Below are positions 568 to 21,039 of a DNA stretch of 21,039 nt, one piece after another. This stretch comes from a virus (taxonomy: Duplodnaviria; Heunggongvirae; Uroviricota; Caudoviricetes). Each line of letters begins with the position of its first letter. Position 1 is the stretch's first letter. The stretch lies in the IMG/VR virus record IMGVR_UViG_2718218398_000002; one strand, given 5' to 3'. Made by a program: the position numbers and the translations under genes. Below the pieces are notes generated by a model that saw nothing but the letters and a program-made list of their open reading frames with translations, had not been told where the DNA came from and made no database searches.

Positions 568-597
568 AACCCCGGATGATCACCGGGGTTAATTTTA
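568..597. terminator. bidirectional intrinsic terminator hairpin between rha and the minus-strand small ORF
   Basis: 8-bp perfect stem aaccccgg / ccggggtt around loop atgatca, followed by a U-rich tract on both strands. Confidence 0.5.
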
Positions 598-684
598 TCG
601 AGCGTGATTGCCGCTAATCGCCATCGCTCTGATTGAGCGTAAATCATTCAGGTTATTCAGTTCTTCCTTCTGCTCTCGCTGACG

Positions 685-831
685 TCAATAAATCCCATCA
701 TTGCGATCAACCTCATCCTTAACCATTGATGCGAGCAGTTCTTCCAGTTTCTGCGCTGACAGCTTTACCTGGTGATCTTCAGCATCTTCCCGGGCTATTG
801 TGGTTCGCGCAGTGGCTGATTTTGCTGACAT
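685..831 (-). CDS. hypothetical small charged protein (48 aa from the internal ATG)
   Basis: Listed in the ORF track as 685..966 (93 aa), but that form starts at a TTG lying inside the tfa-downstream hairpin. The internal-ATG product MSAKSATARTTIAREDAEDHQVKLSAQKLEELLASMVKDEVDRNDGIY has no clear SD and no recognisable family. Confidence 0.2.
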   Translation of the reverse strand: MSAKSATARTTIAREDAEDHQVKLSAQKLEELLASMVKDEVDRNDGIY

Positions 832-919
832 CACCACAGGGGGCAGACGGACCATTGAACCATGGCCTCCGGAACAAATAAGGGCAAAAATAACAACCAC
901 TATCGAAAGCTCACAAACT

Positions 920-1068
920 AACCGCAGCACGTTCCTGCATACGACGTGTCTGCGGCATAATCCCAATGATTACTCCCTGACAGGATTTGCAGGCCACTCA
1001 ATATCAGGTGCAGTTGATGTATCAACACGATTCAACAATACCCGATATTTATTCCATGCCTCCAGCAA
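920..1068. repeat. direct repeat copy A (tfa 3' end plus downstream hairpin)
   Basis: About 150 bp, roughly 85-90% identical to 1971..2118. Covers the last ~30 codons of the Tfa-like ORF and the hairpin ccgcagcacg...cgtgtctgcgg. Confidence 0.8.
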
Positions 1069-1239
1069 CGATCTTTCTTCCTCCGTTGCGATTTCCAGAT
1101 CTACAGCATCCTGCAGTGGCGCAATATACTCACTGAATTCCTGGATGTAGAACTGTGTGGTGACGGTCTTCCAGCCATTCGGCTCCTGCTGTATCGAAGC
1201 ATACCAGGCTATTTCAATATCGCTATGCTGCGGCAGCAT
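970..1239 (-). CDS. tail fiber assembly protein-like (Tfa C-terminal domain only)
   Basis: 89-aa ORF whose C-terminus ([44 protein letters not shown]) matches the conserved C-terminus of Tfa chaperones. It has an SD (AAGGGG) 4-5 nt before the ATG and an in-frame stop immediately upstream, so it is either a short standalone Tfa-like protein or a 5'-truncated remnant. Confidence 0.6.
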
Positions 1240-1266
1240 TTAACCCCTTGTAATTCATCGCCATAA

Positions 1267-1295
1267 TTGATTTAATTCACAAATAAAACTATAAC
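1267..1295 (+). promoter_or_regulatory. putative sigma70 promoter for the methyltransferase gene
   Basis: TTGATT (1267..1272), 17-bp spacer, TATAAC (1290..1295) in an AT-rich divergent intergenic region. The predicted transcription start falls at or after the first ATG, which favours the second ATG at 1308 as the real start. Confidence 0.35.
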
Positions 1296-1964
1296 ATGGT
1301 GAAATCAATGAAAAAAAACACAGATGATGGGGCTAAAATTTACACACCACTTACCCTAAAGCTTTATGACTGGTGGGTTTTGGGAGTATCAAATCGGCTT
1401 GCATGGGGATGTCCTACAAAGGAACACCTTCTTCCACACTTTCTGGAACATGTAGGTAACAACCATCTGGATATTGGTGTTGGAACTGGGTTTTACCTTA
1501 CTCACGTACCTGAGAGTAGTCTGATATCTTTAATGGATTTGAACGAAGCTAGCCTGAACGCGGCATCTACAAGGGCTGGGGAATCAAAAATTAAACATAA
1601 AATTAGCCATGATGTTTTTGAACCTTATCCCGCGGCGTTACATGGTCAATTTGATTCCATTTCCATGTTTTACCTTCTTCACTGCCTGCCTGGAAATATA
1701 TCTACAAAAAGCTGTGTAATACGCAATGCGGCGCAGGCCTTAACTGACGATGGAACTCTATACGGAGCCACAATTCTTGGCGATGGAGTTGTGCACAATA
1801 GCTTCGGTCAAAAACTGATGCGCATTTACAATCAGAAAGGCATCTTTTCAAACACAAAAGATTCCGAAGAAGGCTTAACACATATACTCTCAGAGCATTT
1901 CGAGAATGTTAAAACCAAGGTTCAAGGTACTGTAGTAATGTTTTCCGCTTCAGGGAAAAAATAG
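1296..1964 (+). CDS. class I SAM-dependent methyltransferase, substrate unknown (cargo gene)
   Basis: 222-aa ORF with Rossmann-fold methyltransferase motif I (HLDIGVGTGFY), an acidic residue after beta-2 (LISLMDLNEASL) and a later DDGTLYG motif. No DPPY/NPPY-type DNA-methyltransferase motif. Markedly more AT-rich than the tail genes. Alternative start at ATG 1308 (MKKNTDDG) has a better SD (GGTGA, 5-nt spacing). Confidence 0.6.
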   Translation: MVKSMKKNTDDGAKIYTPLTLKLYDWWVLGVSNRLAWGCPTKEHLLPHFLEHVGNNHLDIGVGTGFYLTHVPESSLISLMDLNEASLNAASTRAGESKIKHKISHDVFEPYPAALHGQFDSISMFYLLHCLPGNISTKSCVIRNAAQALTDDGTLYGATILGDGVVHNSFGQKLMRIYNQKGIFSNTKDSEEGLTHILSEHFENVKTKVQGTVVMFSASGKK

Positions 1965-1970
1965 CATCCA

Positions 1971-2118
1971 ACCGCAGCACGTTCTTGCTTAAGACGTGCT
2001 GCGGCATAATCCCAATGATTACTCCCTGACAGGGTTCGTAGGCCACTCAATATCAGGTGCAGTTGATGTATCAACACGGTTCAGTAACACCCGATACTTT
2101 TTCTAGGCTTCCACCACC
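1971..2118. repeat. direct repeat copy B (tfa 3' remnant plus hairpin)
   Basis: Partner of 920..1068. Contains the hairpin ccgcagcacgtcttaagcaagaacgtgctgcgg and encodes ...[27 protein letters not shown] on the minus strand. Confidence 0.8.
2019..2105 (-). pseudogene. tail fiber assembly gene 3' remnant fused downstream of the pin remnant
   Basis: Minus-strand translation [27 protein letters not shown] then stop, matching the last 27 residues of the Tfa-like ORF at 970..1239. No start codon; it is in frame with the pin remnant through stop codons. Confidence 0.65.
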
Positions 2119-2369
2119 AGCACGACAAGATGCCGCATACAGTGAACCAGTCAGTCCAGTTTTCAGACAACCAGTGCGTCACCTTTTTGAAGGCGCTTTA
2201 AAGCACGTTTTAATCCAGGTCGGCCTGTCCTTGTTCCGCTTAATTTATCTTCAAATATTTGTTCATATCCTGCACAAACAAGAGCGTTTCGTTGCAGATC
2301 TGTATTCTGGTCATTTGTTGATACCCTTACATAGCCAATCAGCACGCTGAATCTCCCGTCCAAAAGCAC
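2106..2369 (-). pseudogene. pin: DNA invertase (Pin/Gin/Hin/Cin serine recombinase family), N-terminal catalytic-domain remnant
   Basis: Translation VLIGYVRVSTNDQNTDLQRNALVCAGYEQIFEDKLSGTRTGRPGLKRALKRLQKGDALVV aligns with the Pin/Gin N-terminus including the catalytic Ser motif. Homology continues in frame through two nonsense substitutions (the W and R codons of the WKLDRLGR region both read TGA) and further missense changes, then is replaced by a tfa 3' end. The C-terminal HTH domain is absent. Confidence 0.8.
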
Positions 2370-2399
2370 AAATCATGCCATGCAGGCCAGAAACCGCCA

Positions 2400-2425
2400 T
2401 TATCTAAAACCTCGGTTTACAGGAA
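2400..2425. repeat. gix/pix-like 26-bp recombination site (left boundary of the invertible segment)
   Basis: TTATCTAAAACCTCGGTTTACAGGAA is a near match to the Gin/Pin crossover-site consensus as recalled. It sits just upstream of the pin remnant and is an inverted partner of 5482..5507. Confidence 0.7.
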
Positions 2426-2470
2426 ACGGTAAACAAGGCTGGTAACGCCGTTCAGCGTTCCGGCGATAAA

Positions 2471-3439
2471 ATGACCGGAGAACTGAAAATTGGCACGGTG
2501 AATGCGCTGCGAATTTTCAATGATGCCTTCGGTCTTATTTTCCGTCGTTCAGAAGATTTTCTTCATTTCATTCCGACGGCTGAAGGACAAGGCGAAAACG
2601 GTGATATCGGCCCATTAAGGCCATTCGCTATAAATCTGAGAACAGGTGCTATATCTGTCAGCCACGGGGCCAAAATTGATGGTGGGCTGGCGCTTGGTAC
2701 AGATAACGCACTGGGCGGTAATTCCATTACTCTCGGAGATAACGACACTGGTATTAAACAGGGCGGCGACGGTGTCCTTTTATTCTATTCAAATGGACAA
2801 CTGGCATTTGGGCTTCAACCCGCATCTGCTGATTTTTATAAGCGGGTTGCATATATTCATCAGGGAATAATTCCTGATGGAAGTGGCGCATTTGCAGACC
2901 AGTTGAATAATGCCACCGCGCCTTTTGTTCAGACGCAGTTTGCCTGGAATCCCACTCCTGGTGGTCTTTACGTGCCGATAGTTAAGGGCTTGTCCATTCG
3001 CAATGGACAGGGCTATCCCGGCGCGGTCAGCTTTGGGTATTTACTGACAGAACAGTATGGATTTCCGGTTCCATGTATTCATATGCGTGGCGATGGCGGT
3101 AATGATGCTTTATGGCAGTTTAACCCGAACGATAAATCCTTTATTTCACCGGGTGCTCTTATTGCGGGTGGCGTCCGTTATAACACCGATGGAAATATAT
3201 TTGGTGGGTGCTGGGGGTCAAACTTAAATGATTACCTGAATAGTTCTTTTATCAGAAATGTGCGTCTGGGAGGCAGACGTTCTGACACATTATATCGCGG
3301 AGGACTTTGCGAACCAGGTAATGGTCATGTGACAACAGGATTGCAAATTATTGGTGAGGTTGATGGAGATGACTGGATGGTGTCACGACCACTACAAAAA
3401 TACATTTCTGGTAACTGGTATAACGTTGAACAGGCATAG
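2471..3439 (+). CDS. alternative tail fiber C-terminal cassette (silent variable part, S'v-like)
   Basis: 322-aa ORF; the frame is open from 2408, directly after the gix-like site. Shares GGNSI(T/V)LGDNDTG and the C-terminal PxQKYIxGxWYNV motif with the C-terminus of the expressed fiber at 4549..7374 but differs elsewhere. No promoter or RBS of its own. Confidence 0.75.
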   Translation: MTGELKIGTVNALRIFNDAFGLIFRRSEDFLHFIPTAEGQGENGDIGPLRPFAINLRTGAISVSHGAKIDGGLALGTDNALGGNSITLGDNDTGIKQGGDGVLLFYSNGQLAFGLQPASADFYKRVAYIHQGIIPDGSGAFADQLNNATAPFVQTQFAWNPTPGGLYVPIVKGLSIRNGQGYPGAVSFGYLLTEQYGFPVPCIHMRGDGGNDALWQFNPNDKSFISPGALIAGGVRYNTDGNIFGGCWGSNLNDYLNSSFIRNVRLGGRRSDTLYRGGLCEPGNGHVTTGLQIIGEVDGDDWMVSRPLQKYISGNWYNVEQA

Positions 3440-3455
3440 CCATCAGGAGAATATA

Positions 3456-3982
3456 TGCAACATCTGAAAAATATTACCGCCGGAAACCCCAAAACCATTG
3501 AGCAGTATCAGCTTACGAAAAAAGCTGGCGTTATCTGGCTATATACAGAAGACGGTAAAAACTGGTATGACGAATTAAAAAAACTTTCAGGATGATACTT
3601 TAAAAATAGCTTATGACCAGAAGGGGATTATTCGTTGTATTGAGAAAGACGTATCAACACTTAACCCTGACGGGTTAAGTGTTGTTGAGTTACCGAATAT
3701 AACAGCCAACCGTCGCGCCGATATCTCGGGAAACTGGAAGTTTCTGGATGGTAAAGTAGTAAAGCGGGAATATACAAAACAGGAACTGCAACAGCAGGCA
3801 GAGTTACAAAAAGCCGCTTTGCTTTCCGAAGCGGAGTCTGTGATTCAACCGCTGGAACGTGCTGTCAGACTGAATATGGCAACTGATGAGGAACGCACAC
3901 GACTGGAATCATGGGAACGCTACAGCGTTATGGTCAGCCGTGTGGATACTGCAAAGCCTGAATGGCCACAGAAACCAGAATA
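3456..3982 (+). pseudogene. tail fiber assembly protein (alternative cassette tfa'), frameshifted
   Basis: SD AGGAG 6 nt before ATG 3456. N-terminus [41 protein letters not shown] parallels Tfa at 4014..4547. The frame breaks in an A7 run at 3577..3583 (one extra A relative to the in-frame reading) and homology continues in another frame to ...[13 protein letters not shown]. Confidence 0.75.
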
Positions 3983-3992
3983 ACAACAAATT

Positions 3993-4017
3993 AAGGCCCG
4001 TACGGGCCTTTTCTTAT
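3993..4017. terminator. hairpin between the convergent tfa' and tfa genes
   Basis: aaggcccg ta cgggcctt followed by TTTTCTT on the plus strand; it sits between the two convergent stop codons. Confidence 0.5.
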
Positions 4018-4547
4018 TCTGGTGGTTCCGGGAATGTTACAGGAAGAACCGAGGTATCAGTTGTCTCAACCTGTTGCACGTATCGCATCCAGTTCATCAG
4101 TTGCTGTCTGTCTGAATCAGTGATAATCCCCAAAGTAAGCTGTGTTTGCCAGAACTGCGTTTTTTCTCTGGCCTGCTGTAATAATATTTTTTTCTGGTTT
4201 TCCGTCTGTAGGCGCAACTCTTCTTCGGTATATACACGTTTAATGACTGCGCCATCTTTAAACATCCATTTACCTGAGTCGTCAGCACGCCGGTTGGCGG
4301 TAATATCAGGAATCTCAACGACGCTATAACCTTCAGGGTTAAGTGTGGAGGCATCTTTGGTTATGGCAACAATAATATTATTTTCATCGTAAACAATCTT
4401 TATGGTGTCTGGCTGAAAGTTTTTCACTTCCTCATACCAGTTTTTTCCGTCCTCAGAGTAAAGCCAGATAACTCCGTGTTTCTTTGTTAACTCATACTGT
4501 TCCAGTGTTTTAGCATTACCCGCTTTTATGTTCTTTAAGTGCATCAT
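4014..4547 (-). CDS. tfa: tail fiber assembly protein
   Basis: 177-aa intact ORF immediately downstream of the fiber gene, ending in the Tfa-type ...FPEPPE C-terminus and paralogous to the frameshifted tfa'. Confidence 0.85.
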
Positions 4548-4548
4548 A

Positions 4549-7374
4549 TTAAACGCTCGCTACATTATACCAGGTGCCATTTATATACTTTTGAACGGGT
4601 CTGTAATAAACGCCCGCTATATTATCGGCAGAGTTAGACCCTGTATCCTGAACATTAATACCAGACAATACATGACCTGAAGGGCACTGGAAATTCCATG
4701 TTTGCCAGTTGTTCACTCCATAATATTGCTGTGAACCAAGTCGAACATCTTTCACATAACGGGAATCAAAGTTACCGTAATCCGAGGGGTTAACACGCCC
4801 TGTAATATTTATGGTTTTATTACTTTGAATGCTTCCGGAGACAAAGCGCATAACATGGACGTTATTAGCATAAACATCCAGATTACCATCGCCATTTTGT
4901 TTAAAGCCCGTGTCATTATCACCCAATACAATCGAATTACCGCCAAGAGCACTGGATGTTCCGATACCCAGTGCACCATTCAGTTGACCACCAGATAACG
5001 GCAGTGCACCAACATCTCCTGCTGAAGGCTTTCTGGTGGTGGTGTAAAATTCGGACCAGTCGGCTTCAAAACCATAACCATCACGGGCTGAACGATAAAA
5101 AATACCGCCATTTTTATAATTAATCCGAAACTGAGCTGCAGGACAACTTCCTTCTCCCATATAAAAATGAATAATTAACGTTGATGCACCACTAATAGTT
5201 GCGTTATAGGCTCCGCTACTCCAGTTCCATCCAACTGCTTTATCATTCGCAACGGTGCTTCCTGTTTTCCCTAAGGCAAACGCACCAACATGACTTGCTT
5301 TTAATGTGATATCGGAGGAACCATCAAAAGCCACATTGCTTATTTTCCTGGCAGTTTTTAATTTTGCAGCTGTAGAAGCATTGCCGGATAGTTCACCAGA
5401 AAGGCCACCGCTGAATGTTTGTCGATTAGTCCAGGTATTCGCTGTACTGAGTAACGGTATTTTCTCCCCGCTTGTGCCGAGTTCTCGTAAACCGAGGTAT
5501 TCGATAACGGCGGCAACGGTCGATTTCGCAAGAATATCCCGCCCAACTTTTGTCAGGGTTGCCAGACTGGCAACATCATTCCCCGTAAAATACGGAAACC
5601 TGTCTGCCGCAGTAGCAAGCCCGGCCAGCGCCGTCAGGGTGGCATCTTTCGGTTGCTTACCCGCAAGCGCGCTAGTCATGGTGGTCGCAAAATTCGGGTC
5701 GTTGCCCAACGCCGCAGCCAGCTCGTTCAGCGTATTCAGTGCGTCAGGCGACGAGTCCACGAGGGCAGCGATCGCAGCCATAACATAAGCCGTGCTTGCG
5801 ATTTGGGTATTATTCGTTCCCTGTCGCGCAGTTGGTGTTGTTGGCGTTCCGGTCAGTGCAGGACTATTTAAGGGCGCTTTCTTGTTCGTTTCACCCATTA
5901 CCGCCTTAACCGCTTTTGGCGTTGCCGCCAGTGACTCGGAAGTGCTGTTGGTCGCACTGCTGAGCTGTACTATCCCCTTTTTCGTCGTGCTCGCATCCTC
6001 AAGCGCCACGGCGGATGCAATATCCTCTGCCCGTTTTGCCGCTGTCTCGGCGCGCGTTGCCGCGGATTCCGCCGTACTTTTGCTCTGAGCTGCCGCCGTC
6101 GCACTGCCAGCTGCCTCTGTCGCCTTCGTGGATGCCGTCGTGGCGCTGCCCTTTGCTGCTGACGCCTGTCTGGTCGCCTCATCTTTTGAAGCAGACGCAG
6201 ATGATGCCGATGACGCCGCTGAACTGGCTGACGATGCGGCTGCCGCCTTAGAGGAAGCAGCATTGTCTGCTGAAGTCTTTGCATTTGTTTCAGAGGTTTT
6301 TGCTGCAGAAGCAGACCTCGCTGCTGCAGTGGCTTGCTCAGTGGCTTTGCCAGCCTTCGTTGTGGCTGTTGAAGCGGATGATGCGGCGCTTTCTGCCGAT
6401 TTTCCGGCGGCGGTGGCACTGGCTGAGGCCTGCCCGGCACTTGTTGACGCGGCACTGGCAGATAATGCAGCCGCTGTTTTTGAACCTGCCGCAGCTGAGG
6501 CGCTCTGTCCCGCTGCTGTTTCAGAAGACTTAGCGTTCGTCTCGGACGTTTTTGCCGCCTTCGCGGAATTTCCTGCCGCCGTTGCCGAGGAAGCTGCACT
6601 ACTGGCACTTGATGATGCATTCGTTTCTGAAGATTTCGCTGCCTCTTTTGAGGCCGCCGCACCCCGTGCCGAGGTGGCAGCTTCTGACGCCTTCGTGGTC
6701 GCTGTGGATGCAGAAGTGGCTGCCGATTTTTGTGATGCTGCGGCATTCGTTTCTGACGTTTTCGCGGCACTGGCGCTGGTAGCTGCCGCGCTTTTTGATG
6801 ACTCTGCAGCAGCAGCACTTTTTGCTGCTTCACGGGCCTTTGTCGATGCCGTTCCTGCGCTGGAAGACGCTGACTGAGCCGACGACGCGGCCTGTCCGGC
6901 TGACGTGCTGGCGGCACGTGATGAGGCTGCAGCATCGGTTGCATGAGTTGCCGCCTCGCTGGCTGATGCACTGGCATCGCTGGCTGATTTTTTCGCGGCT
7001 GCCGTATTCTGTGCAACCGCGGAGGCGTTACGTGACACCTCTTCTACCATCTGCTCAAAGCGGCGCAGTGCCTCCGGTCGTACATCATCCTCCGTCATGG
7101 CACCGAGAAAATCATTCAGCGTACCTGGTCTGGAACCTTCATAGACGGTAATGGTCCCGGCATGTGAAGGCGGAAAACCTTCAACCAGCAGGGTGACGCT
7201 GTACTGACCATGCTCAACATCCATGCTGTAACGTCCGGCTTCATCCGGATTTTCAGAGGCCACCGTGTTCACCACCACCGTGCTGCTGGTTCGTCTGGCC
7301 TTCAGCACAATGGTGCAGTTCTGTACTGGTTTTCCTGTGCCATCTTTAAGCACGCCAGAAATTTTTACTGTCAT
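4549..7374 (-). CDS. stf: side tail fiber protein, lambda Stf-like N-terminus with an invertible-cassette C-terminus
   Basis: 941-aa intact ORF with RBS GGTGGA. N-terminus [26 protein letters not shown]... and the long Ala/Ser/Thr-rich repeat region resemble lambda Stf as recalled. The C-terminal ~316 aa lie inside the invertible segment and end in [18 protein letters not shown]. Confidence 0.9.
5482..5507. repeat. gix/pix-like 26-bp recombination site inside stf (right boundary of the invertible segment)
   Basis: TTCTCGTAAACCGAGGTATTCGATAA matches the reverse complement of the 2400..2425 site at 22 of 26 positions with an identical central AAACCGAGGT core. It encodes ...[11 protein letters not shown]... 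at the constant/variable junction of the fiber. Confidence 0.65.
5990..7010 (-). repeat. imperfect tandem repeats encoding the Ala/Ser/Thr-rich low-complexity region of the fiber
   Basis: Repeated peptide units such as [10 protein letters not shown] and [21 protein letters not shown]-rich and repetitive DNA that also produces long spurious ORFs in other frames (5970..7016 minus, 6128..6877 plus). Confidence 0.7.
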
Positions 7375-7420: not shown

Positions 7421-7520
7421 TCAGGACAGTGTAACTTTACGTTTCCTCAAACGCAGTTCACCCCATAAGGTGGATGAACCTGCGTATCATAACAATATTT
7501 ACAGAAGATAAATCGGCGTC

Positions 7521-7750
7521 TGTTGTCAGAAACGGTATCCGATACCAACAATAAATGCATCCGTTCGCCAGTCGCCACTACCGGAACCTTCATAAGCAAG
7601 GTCAATGGTCACGGATTCGGTCGGGTTAAACTGCACGCCAGCCCCCCACGCCAGAGACGTGTTGCTGTGGCGACCGTCATCACTTCCGGTCAGCACATCG
7701 TGCGTTTTCCCCTTGTTGTCAGTTACGCGGAGATAATCCCCGGAGAAAGT
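7521..7750 (-). pseudogene. lom: lom (Ail/Lom-family outer membrane protein) 3' fragment, separated by the IS insertion
   Basis: Minus-strand translation ...SGDYLRVTDNKGKTHDVLTGSDDGRHSNTSLAWGAGVQFNPTESVTIDLAYEGSGSGDWRTDAFIVGIGYRF then stop, matching the lambda Lom C-terminus. Confidence 0.85.
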
Positions 7751-7836
7751 TGCGTATTACCGTGAAGGAGATCGGTGAGTAACATCGATGGAGATCGGTT
7801 CGTGTCACTTTCACAGAACCGTTTTTTAAATTACCT

Positions 7837-8586
7837 TCACTGATCTCCTTCGGTCAACGGAGATTGTATTTTCCGCATTGATTCTCCTTTAAGTTCGATC
7901 TTGATACTGCCATGAACCAGTCGATCTAGGATGGCATCCGCATGTGTGGAGTCTCCGATCATTTTGTACCAGTTTTCCACCGGCAACTGGCTCACTACGA
8001 TGATTGAGCCTCGTTGGTACATCAGATCCACTATTTCCAGCAGGTCGCTACGCTGTTCTGATGAGAGAGGTTCCAGCCCCCAGTCATCCAGAAGCAGCAG
8101 ATCGCTATTATTCAGCCTGGTCAAAAGTTTGCTGTATCTTCCATCAGCATGCCCCTGATAGCACTGTTCCATCAGCGCTTTAAGGCGATAATAGTAGACC
8201 TTGTATCCCTGTCGGCAGGCATTATGACCAAGTGCACATGCCAGGAACGTTTTACCGCTGCCGGTGGCCCCGGTCAGTAAAATATTTTGTTTCAGGGTTA
8301 ACCAGTTTCCCTGACTGAGTGAACGGATGAGGGCCCTGTCCAGCCCTCTATTGTTACGATAATCCAGCTTTGATAACTCAGCATTAAGTCTGAACCGTGC
8401 ATGTTTGATCAGACGCTCTGCCTTCCTGTTTTCACGGCAGGTTAGTTCTTCTGCTGTCAGTAATGACAGGCGTTCTTCGAAGCCCAGCTCCTGGTATGTG
8501 CCCGGTTGAGCAAGTTGCTTTTTAAGCGCATCACGGAAGCCGGTGAGTTTAAGTGCGGTCAGTTGTTCGTAAAGATGATTCATCAT
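7837..8586 (-). CDS. istB: IS21-family transposition helper ATPase IstB
   Basis: 249-aa ORF with a Walker A motif (LTGATGSGKTFLACALG) and Walker B (LLLLDDWG), typical of IstB. Confidence 0.85.
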   Translation of the reverse strand: MMNHLYEQLTALKLTGFRDALKKQLAQPGTYQELGFEERLSLLTAEELTCRENRKAERLIKHARFRLNAELSKLDYRNNRGLDRALIRSLSQGNWLTLKQNILLTGATGSGKTFLACALGHNACRQGYKVYYYRLKALMEQCYQGHADGRYSKLLTRLNNSDLLLLDDWGLEPLSSEQRSDLLEIVDLMYQRGSIIVVSQLPVENWYKMIGDSTHADAILDRLVHGSIKIELKGESMRKIQSPLTEGDQ

Positions 8587-8597
8587 TGGATCCCGTA

Positions 8598-10139
8598 TCA
8601 GTGGTAATACTCACTGCCGCGTACGTTTTCGTGTTCCATCGTGGATAACAGATCTGGTTTTGGATCCTGAACAGGTTGTTTATCCAGACCTTTTTCCAGG
8701 ATCGATTTAATACCTGACAGACGCCATACCTTTGTTTTCAGAGCTCTTGCACATGCTGCATTAAGTCTGGCTTTACTGTATTTTTTATGAAGGTTCAGGA
8801 GTCCAAGGCAGAAGCGATAGCTTTGTTCCGGATGTGGACGAGAGTTCAGTATATGAAGCACATAACTATGAGTTTCACTGCCTATGTGCCCCGCCCATTC
8901 CAGAAGACGCTCTGGCGTCCAGGTGGCATGCTGTCGATGAGCTTCAGGCATGTGCTCGTTGCGGGTACTGTAGCCATAAGTACGCTTGCGCGGGTGCACA
9001 GCAACCTCCTGCCCCTGATTGAAGAGTCTTACCAGTTCTCCGGAGATCCATGCTTCCAGTTGCTGGCCTAACAGCGAACATGGAACCGAGTAGTAATGTT
9101 TGTCGATTTCCACGTGGTAATCGGCATGAACTCTGACTTTCTTCACCAGGGTGTAACTGTAACTGGCTTCAGGAAGAGGCTTCAGTGCGGGTTTATCAAG
9201 CTGGATGAAGAGTTCTGCACGTGAATAACCCAACTTCTGCATTATTTTGTTATTCAGTCTTTCCAGCAACTCCCGAATGCGCTGATTAAGCGATGCAAGG
9301 CTGTAGAAGATCTCATGCCTGATTCGGGCCATGATCCAGCGTTCAACAACCTGAACGCCAACTTCAGCTTTGGCTTTATCTTTCGGTTTACGTGGCCGCG
9401 CAGGCAAAACTGCGACATTATAATGCTCAAGCATCTGCTGGTAGGTAGGGTTAACGTCAGGATCATACTTACATGCCCTGGATGTGGCGCTTTTCAGATT
9501 GTCCGGAACAACAAGTTCAGGAACGCCACCCAACCACTGGAAGCAGCGAACATGACTCATCACCCAGTCTTCAAGCTGCTGAGACCAGGTGGCCTCTGCC
9601 CATGTGTAACTTGATGCCCCGAGAACAGCTACGATGACCTGAGCAGTTCTTATTTCTCCGGTCTCAGGGTCGGTAACGCCAACGGTAGGTCCACAGTAAT
9701 CAACGAAAAGTTTTTCGCCAGCTTTATGTACCTGACGCATTGATGGTGAAGTGGTTTTGAGCTATTCACGGTACATCCGGCAGTAATGGTTATAGCTGTA
9801 AAAACCGCCTGGATTACGCTCACAGTATTCTTCCCAGAGTAGCTGCAGCGTCACGCATTTATTACGCAGTTCCCGGTGTACTGTAGCCCAGTCAGGCAGA
9901 GAGTGCTTCTTCATCTTAACCTGGGTCTGAAGGAACGCATGTTTTAGTTTTGTATCATCCCATCCTGTAGGTAAGGGCCACTGCTTTATGCCAAGTTGAG
10001 CCGCCCGATTAGCATATCTGGATACAACGGAAGGGGAGATTGCAAGACTACGACCAATTTGTCGATGGCTGAGTCCAACACCGTATTTAAGCCTAAGAAT
10101 TTCTTTAAGTTTTCTCATAGAAATTGGAACTGTTGGCAT
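8598..10139 (-). pseudogene. istA: IS21-family transposase IstA, interrupted by an in-frame TAG
   Basis: The N-terminal HTH ORF (9762..10139, 125 aa) and the DDE-domain ORF (8598..9740, 380 aa) are in the same frame, separated only by an amber codon at 9762..9764 (...[19 protein letters not shown]...). Confidence 0.65.
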
Positions 10140-10332
10140 AGGTATCCTTTACCGGAATGGCAAAAGATACAGATCAACACACCTGTGAAGTTCCAATAAC
10201 ATTGATGGAGATCACTGAATAACAAAATGAGTCAAAAGTGATCTCCATCGATGTTATTCAGCGATCTGTTCAAATGTTATTACCCGATCTCGATGGAAGT
10301 TATTGAGTGATCTCCTTTCATGAAAATACGCA

Positions 10333-10712
10333 AAAGTCGACACACGGCTGTAAGCCACACCCGCCATCGCATACGCGCTGAACCATTCATTCACGCGTAC
10401 AGACGGCCCCGCCATCACGCTGAACCAGCGGTTACGCACGGAATCTTCATGCCAGCGGGTATCGCTGTAGCGCGTTTTTTGCTCATCCTCAGCATTGGCA
10501 TAACTGAAGGACGTAATCAGCCCCAGCGCGTCCGTAAACTCATAACGGTATTTCACGTTAATCCCGTTCAGATCATCACTACCGGGAACGTTCGTCGAGG
10601 CATGGAGATACCCCGCGCTCAGCGTGGACTGATGTTCTGCTGCACTCGCTGGCGTAGCAGCGGCGACCTGCCAGACTACTGCGGACAAAATAACAGCACA
10701 TAATTTACGCAT
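10333..10712 (-). pseudogene. lom: lom 5' fragment (signal peptide and N-terminal beta-barrel portion)
   Basis: MRKLCAVILSAVVWQVAAATPASAAEHQSTLSAGYLHASTN...AYSRVSTF matches the lambda Lom N-terminus up to the IS junction. SD GAGAGG precedes the ATG. Confidence 0.85.
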
Positions 10713-10779: not shown

Positions 10780-13700
10780 TCAGCTAATCGTGATGCCTGC
10801 AGTGGCTTTCTTCATCACCACAACCAGCAAATCGCTGATACTTGCTGTGGGATACCAGTTATTTACCAGCCATGCTGACACCGAAAACTCCAGTGTCATG
10901 TGACCGTGACCGGCAGGCATATCAATAACACCACTGTAAATCAGCGTATTATCCAGCGCGGTACGGTTATAAATTTCAGCACCGTTTTTCCGCACTATCA
11001 GACGGCATGAGGAGTAAATATCAGTATGCTCTTTCTCATGTTTAGCGCCGCTGAATGCCACCGCCGGAATAACAATCTGCCGGTCAAACGGCTGATCGTC
11101 ATAAACCCTGACGGTAATGGTTCCTGATGGCCACCGCTCCGGTGCACGGGAGTCCCGGGGGAAAGCTTTGCCCACTGTTTTAACGAGATCGCCTTCAATC
11201 TGGTTCGCGGACAATTTTCCCAGAACCCGACAGTTCTCGTTAATCGTGACGTTGTTGAGCGTCCCGGAGTTCGCATTCACGTTACCGCTGATATCGGCAT
11301 TTTTCGCCGTCAGCCGCCCGTCCGGTGTCAGGGAAAATGCCGGAGGATTACCGCCGCTGGTAATGGTGGGAGCCGTCAGATATTTCAGGAACACTTCATT
11401 CATAAATATCTGATCGCCCTGACCAACAAACATCGGCTTTGTGTTGCCATTCGCAGGATTAATCATCGCAATCCTGTCTGCCGCCAGCAGCACCTGACTC
11501 TGCATTCCTGCTGGCGTATTCTCAATACCGGCACCGATACCCGCAATATAAAGGCGTCCGTCCTGCATCTGCTGCAGTTTCACGGCCCACATGCTGTTCA
11601 GGTTATTATTTGTATCAACCTGAACTTTCTGTATCTGCTGGATTGCCGCACTCTGATTTTCCAGTTTTTTATTGACGGTCTGCGTGATTTCATTGCTGAC
11701 ATTCGTAATGGACGTCCTGATTTCAGCCAGGTCCGGCGCAAGCTGACCGTTATCAATCTGCGTCCACAGCTCCTGGGCCAGATGTGTTTTCCCGATTTCT
11801 CCTTTGAAAAAATCCAGGTAACCTTCCGCATCATCGCTCGCCCGACCGACAGCCTCCACGAATGCCGATTTGCCAACAGTATTCACACTGCGGATATAAA
11901 AATAATAATCATGGCCCGGTTTGATATTGATACTGGCAGCTATCCAGTACAGCGCCGAGCCAAGATAGCGGGCTGCGGTTTCAACCTGCCTGATATCCGC
12001 AATCCGCTTTTCCGAGAACCAGAACTCAAACTGTACCGTCGGGTCATAAACGGCAAGATGTGGCGTTGCGGTTATCTGAAAATAGCCCGGCGTCAGCTCA
12101 ATCCGCGACGGTGCTGCCGGTGCGGCAATCCGGAAGGTGGTGGTGGCAGGTTCACCCTGCTGGCCATAGCTGTTTATCGCCCGCACCGTCAGGGTGTATT
12201 CCCCGAGCGGCAGGCCGCTGAAACGGTGCTCCGTGTCTGCGGTGATGGCGGTGGTCACCAGTCTGGCATCCGTTCCCTTACCACTGGTCAGGCGCAGACT
12301 GAAGCGCACACCCTTCACCACCCGCGGCGTGTCCATTTCGCCTGCGCCAGATACTGGCCGTCAGCTGCGCTCACCTCCACCGTCAGGTGCTGCACTGCCG
12401 GTGGGATGACGCTGTTCAGGGAACCTGACTGCGGCTCAAAGCGGGCACCGTTATCCACGATGGCTTCTTTTTCCGGTACGTGCTGCACCGCCGTGATGGC
12501 AAAGGTGCCGTCCGTGTTTTCCCGGATGGAGACACAGCGGAACAGGCGACGGCGCAGTGACGGCAGGGAGAGTCCCCCACACCCCGTATGTCTCCACACC
12601 ATCAGGCAGGGTACTGACCTGTATCCGGTCCGGCGCGGGGTGTGCGGTGATGTCCACACTCACCGGCTTACCGCTGCCGTTAATCAGGTTCACCGCCGAT
12701 GTACCTGTCTCCGGCAGGGTAACCTCACGGTCCAGCGTCAGGGTGCGGGTGGCAGCATCAATGGACAGGACACGTCCGCCGGTCAGGGTCCCGGCATAGT
12801 CATTATCACAGATTTCAATAATGTCACCGGGTGTGTGCCGCAGCCCCTGAGACCCGAGCGTGAAATCCACCGTCTGCGTTTCCAGCAGTTCGGTCTTTAT
12901 CACCCACAGTCCGGCACGGTGGGCCTGACCGCGGCTGGTACAGCCGAACGCGTCCATCTTCAGCAGGTTGCGTCCGTAGCGCAGTATGGCTTCCGGGTCT
13001 TCCACCAGTTCCGTGGAGGTCTGCCAGCCGTTCTGCGGGTCGGTGTAATTCACCTCCACCGCCGTGTGCCGGTCCTTCAGGGCACTGAAGCTGTAGCGGA
13101 ATCCCACGCCGTTATCATCCACCACCACATCGCTGTTGGTGTACGGCCACACCACATCCGACGGGCGGTCCTGAACGAACGTCAGCGTCTGACCGTTCCA
13201 TACCGGGCATACAGCGCATCGCAGAGCAGAAATCACTGAGAACGTCCCACGCCTTACGCTGTTGTGCCAGGTACGCATTAAAGGTCATCCGCGGCTCGGT
13301 CCCCCCGAAACCATCCGGGACCGTCTGGTCGCAGTACTGCCCGATGGCATACAGCGCCCACTTGTCCACATCCGCCGCCCCCAGACGTTTTTCCCATGCC
13401 GTAGCGCGGGTGAGTCAGCATGTCCCACAGACACCAGGCCGGGTTGTTGCTGTATGCCGGTTTCAGACTGCCGTCCCAGATACCACTATACGTGCGTTTT
13501 TCCGGGTCATAGTTTGACGGCACCTGGATGATGCGACCGCGGATATGGTAGTTCACCGTCATCTGCTGGCCGCCGAACTGCTCCGCATCCACCTGCAGCC
13601 CCACAATGGCCGTGTTCGGGTAGCACTGTTTCACATCGATGATTTCGGTGTATGACGACCACAGCGTCTTATTCTGCAGCTGGTCCGTGGTGCTGTCCGC

Positions 13701-14255
13701 CGTCTCCCTGACCATCCGGATGTTAAAGGGCCGGGGAGGCAGATTATCCAGAATCACCGAGGCCAGGAACTGTGAGGTGGTCTTGCCGTTAATGGTGACG
13801 TCCTTTTCTGTCACCCAGTTACCGTTACGCTGTAACTGAATCAGCAGGCGGACGGATGCCGGGTTACGGTCACCCTTTGAGGTGGTCTCCACCAGTGACT
13901 GCACCCCGAAGGTAACCCGCAGGCGGTCAATGTTCGCGGACGTAATGGTGCGCGTCACCGGTTTTGCCTTCGTCACTTCCACGCCCAGTCCGGTTTCAGC
14001 TCCGGAGGACTCAAAGCCTTCCGGTGGTGTCTGCTCCTGCTCCCCGGCGCGCCAGACCGCCGTCACACCGTGTATCACGGGATTGCCGTCCGTGTCCGTC
14101 AGTGGGGTTTTGTTCACCAGAATACTCTGCAGTCCCTTCACCGGACCTTCTATCGGTCCCTCACCAATCGCATCAATCACGCTCATCATCTGCGTGGATT
14201 TGAGATTATCCTTCGCCTCACGAGGCGTGTGTGCCTTACCGCCACCTTTTCCCAT
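10780..14255 (-). pseudogene. J: tail tip / host specificity protein J, broken by four single-base frameshifts
   Basis: Five consecutive minus-strand ORFs (13278..14255, 13115..13369, 12451..13278, 12315..12659, 10780..12336) are collinear with lambda J from its MGKG... N-terminus onward. Each junction is a 1-bp indel in a homopolymer (near 13387..13391, 13205..13207, 12573..12577 and 12337..12338). Confidence 0.85.
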
Positions 14256-14359
14256 ACAGCCTTCCCCTGAATAAATTAACCGCCACTTGCCATTCCGTAC
14301 AGAAGTCGGATATCCTTCGCCCGAAAAGCATGAAACACATTTCTGCCATGCTAAAGAGA

Positions 14360-14393
14360 AACCCCGGTATCAGCAGATACCGGGGTTTTCTTT
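14360..14393. terminator. strong hairpin inside the I-J intergenic insert
   Basis: Perfect 11-12-bp stem accccggtatc / gataccggggt with loop agca, followed by TTTTCTTTC on the plus strand and UUUCUCUUU on the minus strand. Confidence 0.45.
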
Positions 14394-14462
14394 CATGCCC
14401 ACCGATAATCCTGTTGGTTAAAACCGGGTAATGGCATAAAAATTTCTGAATATCTTCACATT

Positions 14463-14490
14463 TTCACACACTGACTGTGGCGCTTATAAT
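14463..14490 (+). promoter_or_regulatory. near-consensus sigma70 promoter, plus strand, antisense to the tail operon
   Basis: TTCACA (14463..14468), 16-bp spacer, TATAAT (14485..14490), with an AT-rich UP-like tract just upstream (14433..14460). Confidence 0.4.
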
Positions 14491-14496
14491 TTCGCT

Positions 14497-14594
14497 GCGT
14501 TAGTGTTTTTTTGCCCGAGTAACAAAAACAACTCCTTAACATTGATCTTCATTTGTCTGTCCCCGCAGCTCCGCGATCACTGCGGGATTTTTTT
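14497..14594 (+). ncRNA. candidate ~100-nt small RNA (promoter to terminator, no ORF)
   Basis: Lies between the predicted transcription start after the TATAAT box and the intrinsic terminator at 14562..14594. Contains no ATG with an SD. Confidence 0.25.
14562..14594 (+). terminator. intrinsic terminator, plus-strand orientation, abutting the I stop codon
   Basis: Stem cccgcag...ctgcggg followed by T7 (14588..14594). On the minus strand an A-run precedes the stem, so it is not a canonical terminator for gene I. Confidence 0.5.
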
Positions 14595-14599
14595 ATGTT

Positions 14600-15282
14600 T
14601 TATCCCTGTCGCCCGATAACCACGACCGTTCCGCCCCCGCCTTCATCACGGGTGCTGATGTCCTGGGATATACGGCGGGAGCCAACCAGCATTTCCCCGT
14701 AAGGCACCGGCATCGGGTTCCCCTGGGCAATCATGTTATCCAGCGAGGAAAAGTACGTGTTCTGTCTGCCGTTATCCGTTGCGCGGTAATCCGGTGTTTT
14801 TGCCTTCGGGGCCAGCATCTGGGCCACACCGCCCAGAATCATGCTGGCTCCAAGTGAAAACAGCATCGTGGTGGCAGAAAAACCACCGGGCTGCCAGGGC
14901 TGAACCCCATAACGCCATTGATGCCCCGGCAGTGAAGAAAGAGCCCACGATGGCTGCCGCCCCCAGGCACAATCTGCAGTCCACCCTTTCCGGCCCCGGC
15001 CAGTCGCGGCACAATATGGATGACCGTTCCCTCACCCAGCTGTTCGTGAAGACGGGCGTACACCGCCTCCGGTGCCGTGTCATAACCGGCAATACGTATC
15101 TGGTACCAGCCTTCGTTCATCTGACGGCGAAAGCCCGGCACCTGTAACGACAGCGCCCGGATGGCTTCCGCTGCCGTGTTCACATACAGGCTGAGGCGGC
15201 GGCCAAATCGTTGTAAATCCCCGTGAAGGCAGATGCGTGCCAGTGGCGGTGACGCCAGACAGAATGCGTTCGTCGTTGCCAT
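14600..15282 (-). pseudogene. I: tail assembly protein I, two frameshifts
   Basis: Three overlapping minus-strand ORFs (14839..15282, 14772..15092, 14600..14866) are collinear with lambda I (ARICLxGDLQRFGRR ... AAAIxGSFFTAGA ... LFSLGASMxLGGVAQMLAPKA ... NTYFSSLDNM). Confidence 0.8.
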
Positions 15283-15922
15283 TTTTCGGAATACCTCTCC
15301 CGTTTACTCAGTTGTTCAGGCAGATGGTGAAGCAGCTCACCGTTGCCGCAGTAAATGGCGGCATGGTTCGGTACCGAAGCACCAAAGCAGCACAGCAGAA
15401 TATCGCCCGCCTGTGCAGAGGACAGGGGCACCCGGTAAAAGCCGGTGACCGCCATATTGTCCAGGTAAAGGTTCTGACCGTTGCGCCACCAGTCATCCTC
15501 GCGATGAAATCCGGCATTTCAGTCCCCGCCAGATGATAAGCATCCCGGAACAGCGTGTAACAGTCCGTCACCCCGTGCTCAAAGCGCCGTCCTGTCAGAT
15601 GTGGCACACAGCGGAATTTGTGAATGTCACCCCGGCAGACCAGCCACCAGGGCAGTGCGCTTTTTATCTGCAGCCGCCGGTCAGCCTCGCTCAGCCAGGG
15701 CAGCCCACCGGGATGACTGTGGACCAGTGCCACAATCTCCCCCTGCATCTCTGCCCGCAGCCAGTCTTCCGGTGCGATACGAAAATACGCCTCCGGCTCT
15801 GCAGAAATATTCACACAAGGGATATACCACTCCCCCTCCGACGTGCTTATCACGAAGCCGCACGACTCCGCAGGCGCACACCGCCGGGCATGCGCCAGAA
15901 TCGCTGATTCAGTCTGTGTCAT
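15180..15922 (-). pseudogene. K: tail assembly protein K (MPN/JAMM plus NlpC/P60-like), one frameshift
   Basis: MTQTESAILAHARRCAPAESCGFVIS...HSHPGG...DCYTLFRDAYHLAG then a frame break (a single-base deletion near 15505, changing TTCC to TTC in the coding sense), continuing as ...VTGFYRVPLSSAQAGD...PNHAAIYCG... in the ORF 15180..15455. Overlaps the start of I by about 100 nt. Confidence 0.8.
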
Positions 15923-20793: not shown

Positions 20794-21039
20794 TCACCAT
20801 TGAGCACTTCCTGCCACAGATACCAGGCCTCTGCCGAAGGCTGATTCGCCTTCATACGACGACCGGTCTTTTTCTACAGCGACTTTAGAGCTGGTTTCTG
20901 GCGGTAGTTCCACCAGTTCGCGCAGATAGTTAGTCTGGGCGAGGTCCAGCTCCGTCCAGCCACCGCGTGGCAGACCTTTTGGCAGTGGGATATCACCGTA
21001 ACGAACGCGAATCAGGCGGCTCACCTGCACACCAACCGC
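20794..21039 (-). CDS. partial phage tail gene running off the window end (5' part of G interrupted by TGA, or 3' end of the preceding tail gene)
   Basis: The frame is open to the window edge (...[33 protein letters not shown]...GSAQW then stop). Its TGA stop is in the same frame as the G ORF start 9 codons downstream. Confidence 0.35.

Follow-up and report, generated by a model that had tools for sequence, protein, structure and literature searches.

Rediscovery of the prophage small RNA PasB in the I–J spacer of a lambdoid prophage, and the cassette family to which it belongs

The spacer between tail genes I and J

The window analysed here, meaning the whole 21,039-nucleotide stretch of IMG/VR record IMGVR_UViG_2718218398_000002, comes from a lambdoid prophage integrated beside ompW. 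Its tail genes G, T, H, M, L, K, I, and J lie on the minus strand and run leftwards; downstream of J is lom, into which an IS21-family element is inserted, followed by the tail fibre genes. Alignment with a 99.85%-identical reference requires 22 indel openings (30 gapped bases) and one substitution, the indels being mostly of single bases in homopolymer runs, and it is because of these that J, I, and H are broken as open reading frames in the window, with J (tail tip) split into three ORFs and I (tail assembly) into two. Since the J-type ORF starts at 14255 (start codon 14253–14255) and the I-type ORF ends with a stop codon at 14600–14602, both on the minus strand, the intergenic spacer corresponds to 14256–14599, and its length of 344 bp is as originally predicted. 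The spacer is 342 bp in the closest complete genomes and other error-free relatives, the difference being due to extra homopolymer bases in the window, a G at 14426 and a T at 14443. In lambda itself the I–J spacer is 60 bp, in agreement with the figure of some tens of base pairs given in the prediction. The RefSeq records carry no annotation in this spacer.

The original prediction described a single 344-bp insert, but comparison with other prophages shows that it is not conserved as a unit and that it consists instead of two modules that assort independently, the whole 344 bp being covered in only 13 of 147 phage matches. The left module (14256–14435) is a 180 bp 'long form' that is at least 95% identical wherever it is found, at 1692 places in 1445 genomes, although these make up only about one-third of the family loci; elsewhere, including in E2348/69 and Sakai, there is an alternative and unrelated left module of 83–93 bp. 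The long left form pairs with both the 99% and the 80% variants of the RNA encoded to its right. The right module (14436–14599, plus strand) is a 164 bp cassette, conserved at 71–100% identity, that comprises an upstream tract, a dyad box, a −10 hexamer, the RNA, and a terminator; with the I and J ORFs on the minus strand it is antisense to the tail operon, as had been proposed.

The left module contains a hairpin at 14357–14396 (core 14360–14393) in which 13 G/C-rich pairs are extended by A/U pairs and which has an A-tract and a T-tract at its flanks. It had been noted earlier as a second strong hairpin, and folding z-scores of −6.2 on the plus strand and −4.6 on the minus strand confirm this, with none of 200 shuffled sequences folding as well. 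The stem is followed by TTTTCTTT on the plus strand and by TTTCTCTTT on the tail-gene strand, and to judge by these features it looks like a bidirectional intrinsic terminator; among relatives it is deleted in one and carries a G-U-compatible change in one. The short left forms have a tail-strand terminator hairpin of their own (CAGGCACC...GGTGCCTG, then TTGTTTTTG), which is called by the scan in both Sakai and E2348/69 and shows one compensatory change of C-G to T-A. In both forms the tail-strand terminator is positioned between the small RNA promoter and the J ribosome site, and one possibility is that a terminator before J lets only Q-modified polymerase through.

The right module begins with an A/T-rich tract (ATAAAAAT, 14436–14443) that is largely invariant and UP element-like, as the prediction had it, followed by the dyad box TTCTGAA-nn-TCTTCACATT (14444–14462; also written TcTGAA-N4-TTCACA), which is an invariant sequence and a candidate activator site. 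The promoter that had been proposed, TTCACA-N16-TATAAT (14463–14490), is present and matches 11 of 12 consensus positions; no other site on either strand of the 21-kb window matches at 11 or more, and first-order Markov resamples of the window contain a mean of 0.2 such matches, with at least one in 19 of 100 resamples. The two halves of this promoter fare differently among relatives, however, since the −35 hexamer (TTCACA, 14463–14468) is good in this variant but differs in the family copies, and it is the dyad box that is invariant instead. We have therefore rejected the −35 as a conserved element, its positions varying freely among variants, and retain the −10 hexamer (TATAAT, 14485–14490) and a predicted start region, GCGTTA (14497–14502), the start being inferred from the position of the −10.

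Identity of the transcription unit with PasB

The unit in the right module is already known: it is a rediscovery of the validated prophage small RNA PasB. This RNA (pathogenicity-associated sRNA B) was described in EPEC O127:H6 E2348/69 as an 83 nt transcript from the minus strand of prophage PP6 (NC_011601, 1466343..1466261), flanked by E2348C_1436 (I) and E2348C_1437 (J) (Pearl Mizrahi 2021, PMC8550237), the products of which are tail assembly protein I and gpJ. Window positions 14512–14594 are identical to the 83-nt PasB at 82 of 83 nucleotides, and reverse-complementing the PasB Northern probe (AATCCCGCAGTGATCGCGGAGCT) gives window 14567–14589 exactly. Aligned with NC_011601, the locus differs at a single base between the upstream A/T tract and the I stop codon, this being an A at 14538 (PasB position 27) where E2348/69 has a C; a variant named 'PasB-2', reported in a recent preprint, also differs from PasB at position 27 (Zhu, Shabalina and Storz 2026, bioRxiv 10.64898/2026.05.13.724894). 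The two copies share their location in the I–J spacer, their antisense orientation to the tail genes, and the same promoter and terminator, and differ in that E2348/69 has a short left module of 84 bp, giving a 240-bp spacer, where the window has the 180-bp long module.

The self-contained plus-strand unit read from the sequence is thus real, and the discrete transcript expected of it is on record, by Northern blot and RNA-seq, for the near-identical E2348/69 copy. In EPEC the size of PasB was corroborated by Northern blot, and its stability depends on Hfq, with log2 fold changes in an hfq mutant of −6.8 and −2.4 (PMC8550237). Its level is higher in overnight static LB (non-activating) than in DMEM (activating), the opposite of Spf; the RNA-seq baseMean for pasB is 482 under activating and 1082 under non-activating conditions, as against values of 4.8 for I and 15 for J (PMC8550237). 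As pasB lies so far above the flanking I and J genes, it must be regarded as an independent transcription unit within a silent late operon. By RIL-seq PasB has 37 interactions and ranks 15th; in chimeras it nearly always occupies the second position, with the chimeric reads lying at 1466260–1466305 (PMC8550237), which corresponds to window 14550–14595. We consider it very probable that window 14436–14599 is a copy of pasB in the full sense, giving rise in the lysogen to a trans-acting, Hfq-dependent, base-pairing small RNA.

The length of this RNA agrees only in part with the transcript of roughly 100 nt first proposed. Initiation as predicted from the −10 would give about 98 nt, and a primary 5′ end near 14497 is suggested by the invariance of GC.TTA at exactly this point; the length given in the literature, 83 nt, derives from RNA-seq read coverage and an approximate Northern size (PMC8550237). 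The published 5′ end, at window position 14512, lies 22 nt past the −10, and because this exceeds the distance of a primary start from its −10, the end placed by coverage must be inexact, unless the RNA undergoes processing.

At its 3′ end the RNA has a rho-independent terminator (14562–14594) made up of CCCGCAG (14562–14568), an 11-nt loop, CTGCGGG (14580–14586), an A, and U7 (T7 at 14588–14594); the GC stem and T-run originally noted are thus confirmed, ending 5 nt short of the I stop codon, and the U-tract is longer than the minimum of four used in the RIL-seq study. Upstream of it the RNA contains four A-R-N triplets, AAC AAA AAC AAC (14521–14532), which are a candidate contact for the distal face of Hfq, the relatives retaining an A-rich A-R-N run. 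There follows a single-stranded candidate seed at 14530–14552 that includes the anti-Shine-Dalgarno-like AACUCCUUAAC together with UUGAUCUUCAU, the latter just 5′ of the terminator; this agrees with a PasB seed proposed to lie just upstream of the terminator (Zhu 2026, bioRxiv 10.64898/2026.05.13.724894). The folding energy of the RNA is unremarkable (z about −0.9), with the body predicted to be mostly unstructured save for the terminator, and in an RNAalifold consensus of 22 distinct transcripts the terminator hairpin alone is supported. Covariation cannot confirm this structure, as the stem is near-invariant; one relative (a single contig) has a compensatory stem, CCCACAG/CTGTGGG. The original prediction also stated that the unit contains no ORF; several of 20–49 aa do overlap it, but none is conserved, since they read through the terminator and the variants have indels that are not multiples of three.

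A family of cassettes with an invariant box

Of 5426 complete E. coli genomes, 1822 carry the 164-bp cassette, at 5522 places in all and in up to 11 copies per genome; it also occurs in 147 phage records, mostly those of Stx1- and Stx2-converting phages at 74–80% identity. The published survey of PasB gives 1158 bacterial and 24 phage hits with a word size of 28 for bacterial genomes (Zhu 2026, bioRxiv 10.64898/2026.05.13.724894), counts that derive from a different database and search settings and are not directly comparable with our 5522 and 147. A search of one genome per species for the exact box-to-terminator pattern identified it in Escherichia albertii and in two short contigs only, the contigs being from non-enteric assemblies and 81–97% identical to this prophage; this range fits the literature, in which the RNA is confined to Escherichia and Shigella, with the proviso that diverged relatives would escape the exact pattern. 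Among the matches listed, nearly all of the places in E. coli have no annotated feature beneath them. Scanning the whole window against Rfam 15 at the gathering threshold gave no hits, AgvB, AsxR, Esr41, STnc100, and IsrG included, and the best score in a permissive scan of 14100–14800 was 26.3 bits against a cut-off of 48, the weak matches being to generic terminator hairpins. The spacer is unannotated in RefSeq, and Rfam lacks a family for it.

Relatives of PasB are already known from the prophages of EHEC O157:H7 Sakai, where EcOnc22 (Sp15), EcOnc23 (Sp14), and EcOnc24 (Sp11) were identified, on the strand antisense to the tail genes, as Hfq-crosslinked RNAs of about 85 nt on Northern blots that are destabilised without Hfq (Tree et al. 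2014, PMC4104026). We find that the I–J spacers of Sakai Sp15 and Sp14 are copies of the cassette, lying between the J and I genes, and that the cassette is 74.5% identical to VT1-Sakai over 161 of its 164 bp. Because the published peaks were placed on an earlier version of the Sakai record (they imply an end of stx2B at about 1268212, which is 1268347 in the current one), we placed EcOnc22 by its Northern probe sequence. The probe (GGGAGAGAACGATGAAGATTAACTGATGAGTTA) is complementary to ...GTTAATCTTCATCGTTCTCTCCC, 23 nt of the Sp15 RNA body just 5′ of the terminator, and since it falls in the homologous RNA body, EcOnc22–24 and PasB are variants of one family. The same probe has no match on the window, which has TTGATCTTCATTTGTCTGTCCCC where Sp15 has GTTAATCTTCATCGTTCTCTCCC, and the window RNA is thus a different variant of the family and not EcOnc22 itself. 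The EcOnc RNAs share with it the I–J position and strand, the dyad box, the position of the −10, ATCTTC, and the CCCGCAG/CTGCGGG terminator, and differ in that the cassettes are about 75% identical, the Sakai 5′ body has another sequence (GAUGCCUGAAAAAUAACUCCAUAAC...), the −10 reads AATAAT, and a −35 cannot be recognised. We note that no EcOnc homologue is given in the PasB row of table S6 of PMC8550237, whereas the PasA and PasD rows have them, and that a keyword search of the main text of Zhu 2026 (bioRxiv 10.64898/2026.05.13.724894) does not find 'EcOnc'.

Comparison of the spacers of 80 IMG/VR contigs, eight phage records, E2348/69, and Sakai yielded 32 distinct variants of the right module, and a box scan of further contigs brought the total to 68 distinct cassettes. 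Alignment of the 32 variants reveals those positions that are invariant: AAAA (14439–14442), TTCTGAA (14444–14450), and TCTTCACATT (14453–14462) upstream of the promoter, the AT.A of the −10 (14486–14489), GC.TTA (14497–14502), and, in the RNA, a T-run, ATCTT (14545–14549), CCCGCAG (14562–14568), and CTGCGGGATTTTTT (14580–14593). ATCTT is constant among the PasB/EcOnc22-type variants, and a motif of the AAYUCCNU type is present in most cassettes, including a second cassette type with a different terminator, with a minority varying in the AAYUCC. By contrast with the terminator stem, the loop is variable in both length and sequence, and in the box the half-sites are constant with only the two central positions variable. 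The 68 cassettes were chosen by the box itself and so show what accompanies the box, not its invariance; in them a −10-like hexamer occurs at a fixed spacing from it, this being TATAAT in 35, AATAAT in 17, TATCAT in seven, and GATAAT in two. The position of the cassette between I and J and its antisense orientation are fixed in every relative examined, and in some prophages the cassette is doubled or tripled in tandem. There is also a second, 'X', cassette type. The original prediction had allowed for the case that the insert might be the ordinary I–J spacer of many related phages with poorly conserved promoter and terminator elements; a large number of lambdoid and Stx prophages do have it as their ordinary spacer, but the elements are not poorly conserved, since the position of the −10 and the terminator are well maintained.

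These patterns draw attention to the box. At the Sakai EcOnc22 locus a promoter scan finds no sigma-70 promoter and no recognisable −35, and yet the RNA is visible on Northern blots; from the alignments it seems that the promoter depends on the invariant dyad box and not on a −35 element. Phages that differ in immunity type have an identical box, which favours a host factor over a phage repressor. It matches the CRP core TGTGA-N6-TCACA at nine of ten bases (TCTGA-N6-TCACA, 14445–14460, with one mismatch), and the window contains no second match of this quality, but 0.8 are expected by chance in 21 kb and a lone match is not significant by itself, so that CRP is put forward as a hypothesis. The midpoint of the box, 14452.5, lies 32.5 bp upstream of the point at which the −10 hexamer begins, and relative to the predicted start it falls at about −44.5. 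At class II CRP promoters the canonical site is centred near −41.5, so that the box is some 3 bp farther upstream than canonical class II spacing. To our knowledge none of FNR, Cra, ArgR, TyrR, or IHF suits the box better than CRP. The higher level of PasB in static LB than in DMEM is compatible with control by cAMP-CRP, and equally with stationary-phase or low-oxygen control.

Tentatively, and with more doubt than confidence, we suggest that the I–J spacer of lambdoid and Stx prophages is a dedicated docking site for small RNA cassettes that share the invariant 19-bp box and with it a single host regulator, for which cAMP-CRP is the best guess. If so, the prophage copies in a genome, of which there may be up to 11, would constitute one co-regulated family, in which PasB, EcOnc22–24, the 'X' type, and the tandem arrays would all answer to the carbon or growth status of the host with diversified targeting regions, and the conserved tail-strand terminator would keep J strictly reliant on antiterminated late transcription.

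Proposed action, alternatives, and known systems

We propose that in the lysogen the host sigma-70 RNA polymerase would start a few bases past the TATAAT at 14485–14490, probably aided by the A/T tract and by a host factor on the dyad box (14444–14462), and would transcribe antisense to the silent late operon as far as the intrinsic terminator (14594). The resulting 83–98-nt RNA would then be bound and stabilised by Hfq, and its unstructured middle (AACUCCUUAAC ... UUGAUCUUCAU) would pair in trans with mRNAs of host and accessory genes. In this scheme we infer the exact start, the role of the box, the contact of the A-R-N triplets with Hfq, the use of the anti-Shine-Dalgarno-like seed, and the outcome for the targets.

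A different role for the same RNA is conceivable in cis, with the RNA pairing with the late I–J transcript, or its convergent transcription colliding with that of the late strand, so that in lytic growth the expression of J or the processing of the mRNA would be adjusted; targets in trans would then be secondary, and the two roles could coexist. Across the I–J junction the complementarity between the RNA and the late tail transcript is perfect, but as this is given by construction for any RNA antisense to its own locus it is not evidence of function in cis. In favour of such a role are the fixed I–J position and constant antisense orientation in all of the relatives, and the tail-strand terminator that always lies between the small RNA promoter and the J ribosome site, its constant placement suggesting that the spacer also shapes transcription of the late strand. 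However, lysogens contain the RNA in abundance while I and J are nearly silent in them, the RNA body has diverged to about 60–70% between prophages, and the 37 partners recovered by RIL-seq are other RNAs, with no entry for I or J in the interaction table of PMC8550237 so far as that table is available; we therefore regard a primary role in cis as unlikely. The left module (14256–14435) could for its part encode a second plus-strand small RNA of about 77 nt, starting near 14323 from the promoter-like site TTGCCA-N18-TATCCT (14287–14316) and ending at the 14360–14393 hairpin with its U-rich tail (TTTTCTTT). The site matches at nine of 12 positions, the hairpin is a stable one, and identity is 95% or above at all 1692 places where the module occurs, but nine-of-12 matches are at chance level (three were found in 1.2 kb against 0.8 expected), near-clonal identity gives no test of selection, and the hairpin is deleted in one relative and is equally well explained as a tail-strand terminator like that of the short-form spacers. 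There is no match in Rfam (the best is 19.4 bits against a cut-off of 40), and we looked for a published transcript and found none; a second RNA is somewhat less likely again than the role in cis.

Two further readings can hardly be entertained. A/T-rich spacers often contain promoter- and terminator-like matches, and the fold energy of this RNA is ordinary, so that both elements could in principle have arisen by chance or be vestiges in a spacer without function; this is contradicted by the published expression data, since Northern detection, Hfq dependence, and recovery by RIL-seq or CRAC have been reported in two pathotypes, and by the invariance of the box, the −10 position, and the terminator while the RNA bodies diverged, and we reject it. 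Nor is it credible that the unit encodes a small protein: several ORFs of 20–49 aa overlap it, for example a 38-aa GTG ORF at 14503–14619, but that ORF has no plausible ribosome site and crosses the terminator into gene I, and variant indels in the would-be coding part are not multiples of three. This reading, too, is rejected, on the read-through of the terminator and the frame-breaking indels. The trans-acting, Hfq-dependent small RNA thus remains the preferred reading of the right module.

The unit read here from raw sequence is therefore a validated prophage small RNA that RefSeq and Rfam omit. What we add is incremental, namely the link between PasB and EcOnc22, the invariant box, the tandem cassettes, and the conserved tail-strand terminator, and regulation of the family is now directly testable through these points.

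Several known small RNAs provide points of comparison. The class II Hfq small RNAs, such as ChiX, MgrR, and CyaR, have an A-R-N repeat, a U-rich 3′ end, and an unstructured seed, as would be expected of RNAs in contact with Hfq at its distal and its proximal face alike. The predicted layout of PasB is similar, although it has no sequence relationship to those three RNAs. A further comparison is with AgvB and AsxR (RF02702, RF02703), anti-sRNAs of O157 prophages that act as sponges of GcvB and FnrS. They differ from PasB in being encoded at the moron site downstream of PR′ and in having another sequence and a length of 51–60 nt; but like PasB they are short, Hfq-bound, prophage-borne, and antisense to their neighbouring genes, and they too form a family in which a conserved 3′ part is joined to a variable 5′ part.

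Sequence quality and foreign matches

Alignment of the window with a 99.85%-identical reference reveals 22 indel openings, amounting to 30 gapped bases, and one substitution. The differences occur along the whole length of the window (examples are at 12332, 13205, 14426, 14443, 14888 and 14966). The gapped bases are mostly single and lie in homopolymers, together with a few short multi-base insertions; this pattern is typical of long-read assembly without correction. These indels leave J as three open reading frames and I as two, and they also split the tape-measure gene into several. Two matches come from non-enteric assemblies, a 3408 bp Streptomyces flavalbus contig with 97.5% identity to 12311–15729, and a 460 bp Parendozoicomonas haliclonae contig with 81.5% identity to 14439–14877; the most likely explanation for both is that the assemblies are contaminated with E. 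coli prophage DNA.

The flanks of the tail region

The final 197 bases of the window (20843–21039) belong to the core gene rluB, which here directly abuts the gene for the tail assembly chaperone. The position of rluB in the closest genomes is approximately 12 kb past the opposite end of the window, with its relative orientation unchanged, so the junction has the appearance of a joint, either in a tandem duplication or in a circle of about 32.7 kb, or else of an assembly chimera.

Downstream of J, at approximately 7520–10710, the lom gene (Ail/Lom family) is split by the IS21-family element ISEc12 (istA/istB), an interruption that is likewise present in the reference genomes. At the tail-fibre end (approximately 590–4550) tail fibre assembly genes in opposite orientations lie alongside several truncated fragments of tail fibre genes and an incomplete recombinase gene, and the tail fibre gene varies in length among related genomes; this region resembles what is left of an invertible host-range segment.

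Variation of the small RNA cassette in other prophages

In some prophages (comparison loci L102, L157, L177, L143 and L117) two or three small RNA cassettes are arranged in tandem within a single I-J spacer, and every cassette carries a separate copy of the 19-bp dyad, or box, that lies at 14444–14462 in the window. L143 has three cassettes in one spacer, and in L102 (IMG/VR 2531839666_000033), L157 and L177 a second cassette type, which we call X, is followed by one resembling PasB, the published Hfq-dependent RNA whose gene the window carries (14512–14594, plus strand), and its O157 Sakai relative EcOnc22. The type X cassette has a CTCCCG..CGGGAG terminator stem with a run of six U residues and a body containing AACUCCUUAAGG; it is present in 110 of 5426 complete E. 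coli genomes, and many of the matches listed are STEC-labelled strains.

A divergent cassette with an unchanged box is found in L107 (IMG/VR 2711768049_000008), where the −10 is poor and the terminator stem is CCCACAG..CTGTGGG in place of the CCCGCAG..CTGCGGG that is invariant elsewhere; this G:C to A:U change is a compensatory one. In L148 (IMG/VR 2534681940_000025), unrelated sequence with an apparent open reading frame start follows about 10 bp after the box, and this cassette may have been disrupted by insertion.

A predicted terminator ahead of J

In all forms of the I-J spacer, the strand of the tail genes has an intrinsic terminator closely upstream of the J ribosome site, and it is predicted at 14357–14396 in the window, at 742–765 in comparison locus L092 and at 2431–2454 in L002. 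Any non-antiterminated transcript that stops at this terminator, before J, would contain a full antisense copy of PasB.
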